This document shows, piece after piece, positions 20,386-54,552 of a stretch of DNA of 64,000 nt. The position numbers and the translations under genes were made by a program. The DNA is from Mustelus asterias (lineage: Eukaryota). Positions within the stretch are counted from its first letter, which is position 1; the number at the start of each line of letters is the position of its first letter. The DNA is taken from NCBI RefSeq assembly GCF_964213995.1, contig NC_135816.1, positions 38,130,001 to 38,194,000 on the forward strand, in the 5' to 3' direction. Under the pieces are notes generated by a model. It was not told the DNA's origin, did not search any database, and saw only the letters and a program-made list of their open reading frames with translations.

Positions 20386-20435
20386 GGCACTCCCTCAGCC
20401 AAATTTTTTTTAAAAGATTTATTTAAATTTATAGT

Positions 20436-20514
20436 CATGATGTGGAGATGCTGGTGTTGGACTTGGGTGGGCACAGTAAGAAGTCTCAACCTGGTGTTCT
20501 GAGACTTCTTACTG
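20436..20514. mobile_element. Miniature inverted PLE-end insertion
   Basis: Reverse tail plus ACAGTAAGAAGTCTCA / TGAGACTTCTTACTGT inverted arms; TSD TAAATTTATAGT at 20424-20435 and 20515-20526. Confidence 0.8.
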
Positions 20515-21875
20515 TAAATTTATAGTAATAGTAATAGATGCAGCATTCGTTAGGCAGTTTGTTTATCATTGTTCTCCATTCCCTCAATGCTTTATTGAAT
20601 AAATTGTGCAACATTTAACTCTATAGATTAGAAACATCTAATTTTTAATCCTGTATTTTTACATATAAAGCGGTCAATTCCCCATCATCACGCTCGGGGA
20701 ATGGTCCCTTTACAGCAATGATAATTGGGTCAGTGGGCCTCATTACTCTCAGTATGGAACTCCCAATTATACAATAGAATGTTTTTTTCATTCTTTAAGA
20801 AAGTGCTATGTGTATGTGCTGGCCTCATTTGAGACATCAAAAGTATTTCATGAATGAACATTGGTCCCCCATGGTCTTTTGCAGTACAGTTTCAGATTCA
20901 TTGACTATCTGTATAAAATACACTGGGAGACTGCCAAGCTATTTGATCCATCACTCCAATATTGAAAATCAGGTTGCCATTTTTTTTTTACTGAACTTAC
21001 AAAACTAAATGTTTTACATTACAGTTATTCTCCCCCCACCCAACCCCCGATATTGCTGGGTTTTTTGTAGTTCAAAAGAATGCAAAAATAGAAAAGTAAG
21101 AGGTTACCCTGGAACAGCTAGCATTAGAAGACAAGAACATATTAATGACATTTTCAAACTGTTCTATTGACACTGAATTGGAATTGGAGGCAAGCTCTGT
21201 CTTCCTTCTTGTAATGGTATAAAATCGGGAAAGGCCAAGAACAATGTGTATTCATGCATTTTTGTAATACCTGTTCACCAACCTCCCAGTGCCAGCATGA
21301 CTTTTAATGACTATCTTGTCAAATCTTGACAGTCAATTATTTTCAATCATTAATTAAAATTAATTATAAAAGGCCACCAAAGTTTACAATCAAACCTTTG
21401 CTCGATTTGAGAAAAACCTTCTACCAGCTGCTTTTACATTAGGGCTGTTGACTTCCTTTCCGGTTTACAGCTGGCCATTTTAATTTTGGAGTGAGCTGTT
21501 CAGTCAACAAGCCATTTAAAAATCAAATATTAAAAGTCTAATTATTGAGTAACCAGGGAAACACGAAAGGAAATACAAAATATGAAGTGACAAACCTAAT
21601 AATAGGAGAGCTGCACAGATGGGTTAGCTAATCCAATGAGTAGCAAAGGGAAATAAGCAATATTTTAAATTTATTTAAGGGAGTGGGCATCGCTGACTAG
21701 GCCAGCATTTATTGCCCATCCCTACTTGCCCTTGAGAAGGTGGTGGTGAGATGCCTTCTTGAACCACTGTAGTCCATGTTGTGTAAGTACACCCTCAGTG
21801 TGGTGTGACCCAATGGCAGTGAAGGAATGATGCTATATTTCCAAGTCAGGATGGTGAGTGCTAAACAAAATAAGT

Positions 21876-21995
21876 AGTCTAACAACACCAGGTTAAAGTC
21901 CAACAGGTTTATTTCTAAACCTGTTGGACTTTAACCTGGTGTTGTTAGACTTCTAACTGTGTTTACCCCAGTCCAACGCCGGCATCTCCACATCA
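21876..21995. mobile_element. Miniature inverted PLE-end insertion
   Basis: 36-bp inverted arms (21876-21911 and 21916-21951) followed by the tail; TSD AAACAAAATAAGT / AAACAAATTAAGT. Confidence 0.8.
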
Positions 21996-51190: not shown

Positions 51191-53713
51191 GATTTTTCTC
51201 CCAGCCACAAAATTGAACCAGACTGTTTGCAAACTTGGTATTCTATTTGAACCTGAGCTGCAATTCCTTTATCTTTGTCAACATGGAGACTAGTTGCATC
51301 TACTTTTATAACTTACCTGTACCCGCCCTTGCTGAATCTGCTGCTGAATCTCATAGAAACATAGAAAATAGGTGCAGGAGTAGGACATTGGAACCTTCAA
51401 GCCTGCTCTGCCATTCAGTATGATCATGGCTGATCAATCAACTCAGTAGTCTGATCCCACTTCCCCCTGCATATCCTTTGACCCCTTTTGCGCCAAGAGC
51501 TATATCCAACTACTTCTTGAAAACATACTATGTTTTCGCCTCAACTACTTTCTGTGGTATCGAATTCCACAGATTTATCACTCTCTGGGTGAAGAAACTT
51601 CTCCTCATCTCTGTCCTAAAAGGTTTACCCCTCGTCCATAAGCATTATGCAACTGTGTGAACTGCCTTGGGCAAGTTTTTTGTCATGGAACTGTCTTAAT
51701 ATAGTGTATATTTTTATTTAGATCTATATTACTAGAAAATGTTGAAAATTTGAATGCTATTAAGTGTGTATGTTTATATGTATTTAAATGACAATTTTGT
51801 TTTATGTTAAAATAATTTTAGATTATTGGCTTAAGTAATTAAACTAAAATGTAAAATTTAACTGCAGAATTTTGAAATAAATATAAAATAACATTTACAA
51901 ATGGGTATATGTAAGTGATGAGAGTGTATTTCAAATTTTTGTTGTGATATTCTTTGAATTAATTTGGTATTTACAATATAAACATAGTTGCCTGTGAGAT
52001 TCAAGAACAGACAACCTTTGAAACCCAGCCCTGCATCATCAACTCTCCAATTACATACACCATTGAATGTATGAATTATCAAAGGGTGCTTTATAAGATT
52101 TTACATAGGAAATTAGCATTTGGACAATTGCACTCTTCAGTATATCTAAGTGAATTGAATTCACATATAGGGTACAATAGCAAACATAATGAAATGTGAA
52201 GAGCACTGTAAGTGGTATTAAATGGACAGACTATTTTGTAAAAGAGAGATTTTGGATTAACAACGTACAGAAATTTGAGGTTATGCATTTTTGTAGGAAG
52301 AATAAGAGGTAATATATATTAATAAAACTTTGAAACAGAAATCCAGGGAACCAGATATGCAAATCCTAAAATTGGAAAGAAATAATGACGGAATTGAGAA
52401 ACACTGGCTATCGCTTCGTAAGTTTAAAGAGGACATCTGCTGTTCTCTCTGGGTGAATGGGGGTGATACCAGCGACTGGGGTTGTCATGAAAGAATTGAC
52501 TCCCCCCCCCCCCCCCGTATCCAGGCCTCGCCATTGGCCGGGGACAACACATAAACTATTTTGAAAGTAGAGTTCAGCCTCTTATACAAAGAAATGGAAG
52601 CTGAGCTCATACTTCCTGATGACGCTGCCAAGGGGTATCTTGCATTTGATGAAGCGGAGGGAATAATTTATTGATTATTTCCTATGTTTGAGATTATATG
52701 AATTGGAATGGATAAATATCAAATTATGCAGAACAAAAGATCGATAGGCGATCTGTTCCATGCAAAGTTGTCTTCAGCACATACTGTGGGATGGAAGTTG
52801 TTCCTGAATCCATATCACTCTGCATTACAAACCAAGCGGAGTACATTCTCTATCCATGTTCACAACGCCATGAAGGCGTTGAGATCCAGTGCTGCAGACA
52901 GCAACCTTTCTGGAAAAGCTTGTGTGCCAATGAAATATATCGTTCTGATCAAGATCACATTATTCTGTGACATTGTAACATGGGGCGGTATTGTTCTAAG
53001 TACAGTGCCATGCACTGTTCTGGTGATGAATTCACATTTGTGAATTGTCATGAAGATTAGAGGCTGGGGTGTACTGTTGCTGCGCCATCTATCGTTCTAT
53101 CAAACTCCTGAAAGATGCTGCCATTCATTGTTACCATATTTGGGGGCATTTGTTTTATTGTTGAAACGTAGTCTGTACTAAAAGATTGCTATCATTCCAA
53201 TCGATACATGGTTATTTAGGATATTTAGATGGAATTTTGAGGGTAGCGTCATATCATTCATTTACCCAACAATTGTCGAGTAGTTTTTAAAAAACACTTT
53301 CAACTTTATGTTATTTTGCTTTTTTTTTAGAACTTAATAAATAATTGGAAATGCTGAGAAGTTTTGATTCCTTTTGGTTTGGTGCTGATGGTTACGTTTT
53401 TTTGAGACGGTGGAGCTGGGGGTTGGATTTGGAGTCTGTGCTTTTAAGTCTGTGCTTGGGGCGGGGGGGGGTGTGAGGAGGAAAAGTGGGGGTTAGAAGG
53501 ACGGAGCTGTAAATTACCGGGAGAAGACAAGGTGGTAAAGGGGGCTGTAGCTGGGAGGAAAGAAATGGCAATAGTGAATGACCCTGGTGCTGCTCCAGCT
53601 CACTGGTTGTGGCTGCAACTGAACCCTGTAACAACCTGCAGCCAGTCAGACTGGCAGAGCGGGCTCAGCACCAGCAATGGTCAATAACTCTTATTTCTCT
53701 CTCCCCAGATGTA

Positions 53714-54361
53714 ATGATGTGGAGATGCCGGCGTTGGACTGGGGTAAACACAGTAAGGAGTCTAATAACACCAGGTTAAAGTCCAACAGGTTTATTTGGT
53801 AGCAAACCTGCATAGAGGAGACTTACAAGGATGTTGCCTGGATTGAGTGGCATGCCTTATGAGGATAGGCTGAGGGAGCTCGGTCTTTTCTCCTTGGAGA
53901 GACGTAGGATGAGAGGAGACCTAAAAGAGGTATATAAGATGTTGAGAGGCATAGATCGGATGGACTCTCAGAGGCTTTTTCCCAGGGTGGAAATGGCTGC
54001 TACGAGAGGACACAGGTTTAAGGTGCTGGGGGGTAGGTACAGGGGAAATGTTAGGGGGAAGTTTTTCACTCCAGAGGGTGGTGGGCGAGTGGAATCGGCT
54101 GCCGTCAGTGGTGGTGGAGGCAAACTCAATAGGGTCTTTTAAGAGACTCCTGGATGAGTACATGGGACTTAATAGGATAGAGGGTCATAGGTAGGCCTAG
54201 AAGGTAGGGATATGTTCGGCACAACTTGTGGGGCCGAAGGGCCTGTTTTGTGCTGTAGTTTTTCTATGTTTCTATGTTTCTGTGTTTCAAACGCCACTCT
54301 TTTCCTACCAAATAAACCTGTTGGACTTTAGCCTGGTGTTGTTAGATTCCTTACTGTGTTT
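53714..54361. mobile_element. Inverted PLE-end insertion with a CR1 3' fragment (~53808-54283) between the arms
   Basis: Reverse tail and arm at 53714-53806; forward arm at 54305-54360; TSD TCCCCAGATGTA at 53702-53713 and 54362-54373. Confidence 0.85.
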
Positions 54362-54552
54362 TCCCCAGATGTACCCAAACCTACTGAGTCCACCCCCCCC
54401 CCCCCCCCCCGCCCGCCCCCCGCCCCCCGCCCCCCAGCATTAACAGTAATTTGCTTTTTTTTAGGTCAATGCCACTAACTCTTTTCCCGCCCTGGGCTTC
54501 TGAGAGAGTGAATGTGATAGATGTGCAATGTCTGAAATACCTTCATATGGGT

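Follow-up and report, generated by a model that had tools for sequence, protein, structure and literature searches.

Penelope-like elements (PLEs) are retrotransposons with pseudo-long terminal repeats (pLTRs), and the layout of their insertions has been published for several endonuclease-bearing (EN+) members (PMC3846280; PMC8557442; PMC2377424). Adineta Pen2a (PMC3846280), the elements of the Fig. 2 legend of PMC8557442 and Penelope of D. virilis (PMC2377424) share an inverted 5'-truncated copy, a 30–40-bp tail at one end, a target site duplication (TSD) with a modal length of 8–10 and TATA/initiator-like words in the pLTR. The inversion has been attributed to self-priming and the tail to endonuclease resolution (PMC3846280; PMC8557442), and papers cited here state that the mode of PLE integration and the origin of inverted pLTRs with a one-sided tail are unresolved. 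This report describes units of the same layout, belonging to two families (1 and 2), in 64,000 nucleotides of the Mustelus asterias genome (NC_135816.1, positions 38,130,001–38,194,000; hereafter the window, numbered from its first nucleotide) and in samples of their copies elsewhere in the assembly.

For Poseidon of Anolis (PAc) in vitro work has shown that both target strands are cut and extended and that two internal starts of the reverse transcriptase (RT), one near the start of the open reading frame (ORF) and one downstream of the hammerhead, flank the tail, and AlphaFold predicts a dimer (PMC11167929). PAc favors an AT-rich ATT target and primes without homology; neither stagger nor dyad is reported in the text of that paper, whose figures and Fig. 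S1–S2 may hold the cleavage spacing. The minimal hammerheads of metazoan PLEs, which have a palindromic helix III and a bulged base before helix II, have been noted as opposite-strand copies 100–700 bp apart and showed low activity in vitro (PMC4209133). The Neptune and Nematis clades carry a C-terminal GIY-YIG domain with internal cysteines, a CX2-5CxxC linker before it and a DKG motif, and their linker has been hypothesized to target microsatellites (PMC8557442).

The hairpin layout in M. asterias is real, and the layout itself, two RT starts and the cutting of both strands have already been published. New and testable beyond it are a dyad target, a near-strict one-tail rule, coupled 5' ends, and the existence of tail-only stubs and of pairs with discordant arms. 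Compared with the EN+ PLEs above, the TSD mode is 12, the target has a dyad consensus, and the one-tail rule and coupled inner ends were tallied over 133 units. The two starts lie as in PAc, whereas the target is TG-N16-CA with 1–3 nt of pairing and the linker is of the Neptune/Nematis type; in contrast to the microsatellites proposed for those clades, the targets of family 1 are spaced dyads that lie within ordinary sequence. The listings of a literature search, whose scope left aside subscription papers and Repbase notes, showed no paper on a dyad target of a PLE, a one-tail count or a genomic pile-up at the hammerhead cut. Seen directly in the copies are the layout, two end zones, the TSD mode of 12, the target motif, the one-tail rule, the coupled inner ends and two upstream pile-ups; we consider it fairly likely that each unit is a single PLE insertion in which a dimer nicks each strand, with an offset of 12 nt, and the two resulting 3' ends prime about 36 nt from each other, usually on one RNA.

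Family 1 is an abundant EN+ PLE. The origin proposed by an earlier reading of the window from its letters (the sequence-only reading) is borne out by the RT and GIY-YIG domains and by a pLTR with a tail. In L094, which is nearly full-length, an open frame of 882 aa matches RVT_1 (E=3.7e-10); the Pfam search of this protein did not report GIY-YIG, and by eye it contains the DKG motif, a CX4CxxC linker before GIY-YIG and the internal cysteines of that domain, as in the Neptune/Nematis description (PMC8557442). Family-1 insertions consist of an optional tail of 30–40 nt, an inverted 5'-truncated copy and a TSD, and in run-on copies (e.g., L116) the tail leads straight into the ORF start codon. 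The core words and stems of the pLTR hammerhead, judged by eye and with RNAfold, agree with the minimal type, including the palindromic helix III and the bulged base (PMC4209133), and the pLTR holds TATA/initiator-like words as in the published elements; Rfam did not detect a hammerhead in the family-1 pLTR. In 30 family-2 loci no RT/GIY-YIG ORF was recognized within 1.5 kb upstream, and 17 of them show a 9–15-nt repeat, which adjoins the inverted tail-less arm in 16. In both families a pyrimidine run ending in CAG, resembling a splice acceptor, lies at or inside the tail just before the ORF start (26065–26085 in family 1, 45345–45362 in family 2).

Exact words were counted genome-wide in the 3.68-Gb assembly; a family-1 tail word has 30,552 matches, the young-subfamily core 52,781 and the family-2 tail 3,385. 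The main locus set comprised 120 regions of contig C1 around listed core and tail matches, a tail match at 9.68 Mb being excluded, and five additional sets of 30 loci each were taken. Loci L001–L060 form one shared stretch of C1, of which L001–L030 served for an initial look and are absent from later counts; the held-out set excludes the repeats L211, L241, and L242, and the subset unbiased with respect to the tail consists of core matches below 4.64 Mb. When 240 loci were treated uniformly, 179 non-redundant pairs resulted, and 133 of these have an exact TSD of at least 9 nt.

The flanks of these units are mirror images around the TSD and follow the dyad (C)TG-NN^N12^NN-CA(G). In 113 of the 133 pooled units CA is found on both outer sides of the TSD at a distance of no more than 5 nt, against 8.1% of random sites (49/58 in the first set, 31/34 in the held-out set). 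The TG-to-CA spacing is 16 in 74/133, against 1.8% at random, and spacings of 14, 15, and 17 add 40. Among 92 units examined for their junctions 55 have the spacing of 16; the central 12-mer is fully duplicated in 51 of these 55, and directly outside the TG or CA there is a C/G base in 36/55 on each side. With the cuts placed as inferred, the last primer base at the tail-less start pairs with the template in 36/51 units (shuffled mean 19.8) and the last two bases in 18/51 (shuffled 5.0), counts that 0 of 10,000 shuffles matched in either case; at the tailed end at least one primer-template pair is present in 20 of 30 first-set units, a raw count without permutation comparison. Start positions vary by a few bases, with 1–3 nt of primer-template pairing. 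Nicking of this dyad is very probable, and the overhangs would be 3' ones of 12 nt, because the opposite polarity would delete the target instead of duplicating it. In the window the unit at 26124 has the target TG-N16-CAG, the units at 53714 and 45158 match the dyad on one side only and that at 20436 on neither side clearly. The younger unit (26108–27562) landed at the tail of an older copy (25404–26123), and that tail provides the target TG.

The ends of the arms fall into two zones. In the unbiased subset (n=100) 58 stop at -42 to -28 from the ATG, 42 at -8 or later and none between, and among all 261 anchors six lie between the zones; tail-less starts defined by the motif are at -38 to -34 from the ORF ATG in 36/41. 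Close neighbors are mostly head-to-head (26/30 among the first 100 core matches), and an exact TSD of at least 8 nt flanks 60/99 head-to-head pairs compared with 5/2,481 mismatched pairings. Among the 133 TSD-flanked pairs 129 combine a tailed and a tail-less end, three a tail and an intermediate end, one is tail-less on both sides and none has two tails; in unbiased pairs 25/26 are mixed against 49% expected (p=2e-7). TSD length is 12 in 47 of the 133, 13 in 36 and 11–14 in 114. Uninterrupted paralogous empty sites with a single TSD copy exist for 21/58 units (23 were matched in silico and two self-matches dropped), although the best match of four of the 21 has 1–2 gaps. One-sided insertions occur too. 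A single repeat site was struck three times with different inner structures (L061, L131, L278), and window positions 21700–21725 are an empty copy of a repeat site carrying insertions in L110, L131, and L165, with the same flank past the tail. Tail-only stubs facing a longer tail-less arm were found in 3/30 loci and among 6/32 unpaired ends.

Much of what the sequence-only reading had proposed agrees with these counts. Its five units with inverted arms, one tail and a TSD were all found; for the unit at 53714, described with arms of ~55 bp, the location holds, the TSD is 12, and the tailed arm turned out to be split by an insert of ~480 bp (53808–54286, with CAAAC at both borders and a short tandem tail at its end). 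This insert presumably resembles the 3' end of a CR1-type long interspersed element (LINE). TSDs of mostly 12–13 bp were recovered, and the proposed tabulation of arm ends, tails and TSDs over sampled genomic copies gave non-random end-points. The fixed stop of the tail-less arm is replaced by a zone. Likewise, there are two start zones with a scatter of a few bases in place of two fixed priming points, and they are not at the RNA 3' end as it had supposed, because the end of the tail is marked by the ORF start codon, which lies within the transcript. The stagger of ~12 nt with priming from both target strands is supported by the TSD mode, the target motif, the pairing and the stubs. The dyad target and the coupling of inner ends were overlooked by that reading.

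Inner junctions were analyzed in the set of 92 units, one of which was skipped, and 74/91 are clean. The lengths of the two arms correlate (rho 0.81) and the inner ends lie at most 12 nt apart in 36/74 (shuffled 6.8, maximum 17); among 36 long units, 10 have inner ends at most 20 nt apart (shuffled 0.9, maximum 5), and long near-equal arms stop at arbitrary positions (1971/1962, 1548/1531, 534/532, and 521/515). The longer arm is the tail-less one in 24 and the tailed one in 14 of the 74. By hand count it ends 84–95 nt upstream of the anchor end in 23/91 units, at 60–83 in three and at 96–119 in four, and the 84–95 zone is 29 nt downstream of the TATA-like word. Genome-wide, 344 copies start at position 89, again in nt upstream of the anchor end, against 63 at 100, a ratio inflated by unequal pattern lengths, and for copies starting at 89 the partners reach 74–90 in 15/16 TSD-flanked cases (30 loci, four of them repeating other rows). 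A transcription start near 89, driven by a pLTR promoter, is somewhat favored by these data. At L305:1480–1680 a pLTR unit starting at 89 is joined head-to-tail, from within the tail, to a second unit starting at 89, which looks like a template jump at the RNA 5' end.

A second pile-up coincides with the predicted hammerhead cut at position 50, with 1,534 copies against 402 at 52 genome-wide; at position 49, a variant with a 2-nt deletion makes up 90 of the first 100 matches, so that this control is confounded and is not used as support. Normal upstream sequence was present in 0/30 inspected cut-site loci. A partner occurs in 29 and reaches 53 or less in 29/29 (three repeat earlier units and two are one unit), compared with 31/182 arms of 53 or shorter overall by hand count. 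Compared with the low in vitro activity described for such hammerheads (PMC4209133), this genomic 5'-end pile-up lies at the predicted scissile bond, and the balance tips modestly toward use of hammerhead-cleaved RNA in vivo; a stall of the RT at a structure is the alternative for position 50.

In the mechanism proposed here a dimeric enzyme would nick each strand 2 nt 5' of CA(G) and leave 12-nt 3' overhangs. One 3'-OH would prime at the ORF start codon and give the tailed arm and the other ~36 nt upstream, giving the tail-less arm, with the assistance of 1–3 nt of pairing, and both cDNAs would extend toward the same RNA 5' end. Short hairpins would arise where copying runs off the RNA, either at its likely transcription start, ~89 nt upstream of the anchor end, or at position 50, the hammerhead cut, whereas long equal arms would come from broken RNAs. 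The cDNA ends, being of the same sense, might meet by end-joining with 0–6 nt of microhomology or short fillers, possibly with local snap-back, and host repair would complete the fill-in. Priming from both strands is likely, and is favored because a tail-less arm could not have been the template for a tail (the stubs, including the insert at 35488–35523). That the enzyme acts as a dimer, as suggested by the symmetry of its target sequence, is rather likely. One RNA as the usual template of both arms, favored because of the one-tail rule and the equal long arms, is slightly more probable than its opposite, and in the favored reading a minority of units use two pLTR copies. The full combination, in which a dimer reads TG-N16-CA and copies one RNA twice while the RNA 5' end, set by the pLTR promoter or by self-cleavage of the hammerhead in vivo, determines hairpin size, is put forward tentatively.

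In LINE-1 twin priming a single RNA is copied from primers on both target strands, and an inversion arises inside the TSD. Its segments do not overlap and start at the poly(A), whereas the two arms described here begin at two fixed points within the RNA, cover an identical stretch with full overlap and lack poly(A); LINE-1-type twin priming was therefore rejected for these units.

According to the published proposal, one target end primes a cDNA that folds back and copies itself, after which resolution of the hairpin by the endonuclease would leave only one side with a tail (PMC3846280; PMC8557442). The coupling of the inner ends agrees with such copying, as does the same hammerhead stem-II variant in both arms of 45/56 units (shuffled 9.5); the turn lies at one and the same GAATTC palindrome in four units and at a quasi-palindrome of 14–21 nt in two, and junction fillers often copy neighboring arm sequence. 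However, tail-only stubs and the arms opposite them have no sequence in common, the tail could not be copied from the longer tail-less arm (24/74), and 16/74 junctions are blunt without overlap. Stem-II arms differ by more than one base in 5/56 units, three of them between well-attested variants; the stub partners and these three discordant pairs are therefore not products of fold-back copying. Cutting of the element itself by the endonuclease at site 1, which the resolution step involves, was rejected, as there is no TG-N16-CA there. On this evidence fold-back is improbable as an account of the units, and could act as the joining step alone. Twin priming on two separate RNAs, in which each protomer has its own RNA and the asymmetry of the dimer assigns the starts, would explain the three discordant units, and a common start or cut on both RNAs would give the shared run-off points. 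It does not predict that two long arms, although they stop at arbitrary positions, have stops no more than 20 nt apart or that the partners at the cut site are short in 29/29 cases, and the absence of tail-tail pairs (0/133) would require an extra rule, which makes this model unlikely.

Long inverted repeats are unstable, and symmetry and identity might have arisen after insertion through cruciform trimming and gene conversion between arms, which could homogenize or mix them; this is very unlikely, since it leaves unexplained the target motif, the one-tail rule and the exact coincidence of inner ends with the predicted ribozyme cut, and near-perfect palindromes with loops of 0–1 nt persist. 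The sequence-only reading had noted that the hairpins mimic miniature inverted-repeat transposable elements (MITEs), and this is true of their appearance, with terminal inverted repeats, TSDs and four units sharing an inner length of 183–184 nt. Those four units carry different stem-II variants, inner lengths range from <60 to >3,700 nt with differing junctions, and the arms derive from an RT/GIY-YIG element by 5' truncation. Amplification of whole units by a DNA transposase is thus scarcely tenable, and a MITE origin was rejected on the unequal ends (129/133) and the varied sizes and junctions. The hairpins also match microRNA precursors, falsely and below threshold.

Several points weigh against the model of a dimer priming twice on one RNA. 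Most samples were chosen through a tailed end and nearly all lie on contigs C1–C2. The spacing differs from 16 in 59/133 units and TSDs range from 9 to 16; an exact TSD of at least 9 nt is missing in 46/179 pairs, and for 19/57 tailed ends the neighboring 1.5 kb contains no inverted partner. There are a tail-less TSD-flanked pair (L302) and three pairs with intermediate ends, and in the 30 family-2 loci the dyad was not seen by eye, without a formal count. Coupled, identical arms are equally predicted by fold-back, and the discordant variants in 3/56 units indicate that the template is not always one RNA copy. The hammerhead pile-up depends on a single clean control, and in PAc hammerhead cleavage is unnecessary in vitro and no RNA reads were seen at the cut (PMC11167929), in contrast to the genomic pile-up here.

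The motif TG-N16-CA, the predicted 12-nt 3' stagger and the two start zones provide an exact substrate and predictions for the existing in vitro system. A retrotransposon endonuclease that reads a spaced dyad and primes both strands would depart from the nick-first scheme of LINEs. If the model is true, one rule (a dimer, a dyad and one RNA used twice) would account for the TSD as well as for the inversion of pLTRs and the tail on one side, and the pile-up would be genomic evidence for in vivo cutting by PLE hammerheads. For annotation, tens of thousands of copies are involved, and the hairpins are easily mislabeled as MITEs. The features located in the window are listed in Table 1.

Table 1. 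Coordinates of PLE-related features in the window.
Feature	Position	Strand or arrangement	Remarks
Single tailed family-1 end	17657..17767	+	
Single tailed family-1 end	18196..18398	+	
Family-1 mini unit	20424..20526	tailed arm minus, tail-less arm plus	16-bp stem; insert 20436-20514; TSD 12, copies at 20424-20435 and 20515-20526
Family-1 hairpin	21863..22008	tail-less arm left, tailed arm right	insert 21876-21995; arms ~36 bp; TSD 13 with one mismatch by eye, 7 by exact-match script
Older head-to-head family-1 copy	25404..26107		minus arm ends at front edge of hammerhead; no TSD found for this copy
Young family-1 unit	26108..27562	tailed arm 26124-26848 minus; tail-less arm 26855-27548 plus	TSD each side, maximal length 16, including 2-3 nt shared with the element; insert 26124-27548; arms 694 nt at 99%
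Tail, site 1 to site 2	26124..26154	-	run-on copies pass directly into ORF ATG
GIY-YIG endonuclease remnant, C-terminal part of element ORF	26856..27239	+	PF01541, E=1.9e-4, 22.1 bits, slightly below the cut-off of 22.6
TATA-like word (27417) and likely transcription start zone (~27444-27446)	27415..27446	+	start 29 nt downstream, suggested by 5'-end pile-up
Minimal hammerhead motif	27443..27488	+	predicted cut 27482/27483; features as described in PMC4209133
Site 1, end zone of tail-less arms	27540..27548	+	about -38 to -33 from ORF ATG
Tail-only insert, 36 nt (35488-35523), site 2 to site 1	35476..35535	+	12-bp TSDs, then NN-CAG
Family-2 hairpin	45146..45405	tail on right arm	12-bp TSDs; insert 45158-45392; arms 92 nt at 91%
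Family-1 unit	53702..54373		12-bp TSDs; insert 53714-54361; ~480-bp insert breaks tailed arm

Some further observations concern individual loci. At L116:4850–5510 the tailed arm extends ~230 nt into the ORF and is followed by a second tailed pLTR, all inside one TSD; in L296 the junction filler is sequence from the ORF start. The young palindromic insertion of 1.4 kb stops ~220 bp upstream of the ATG of RACK1, within or beside the promoter region, and the first coding exon of this gene is found at 27780–27888 (E=1.9e-21). A 271-aa reverse-transcriptase-like frame, which we take to be LINE-like, occupies 62097–62912 on the minus strand, and two tRNA matches lie on the same strand at 54959–55031 and 55579–55651.

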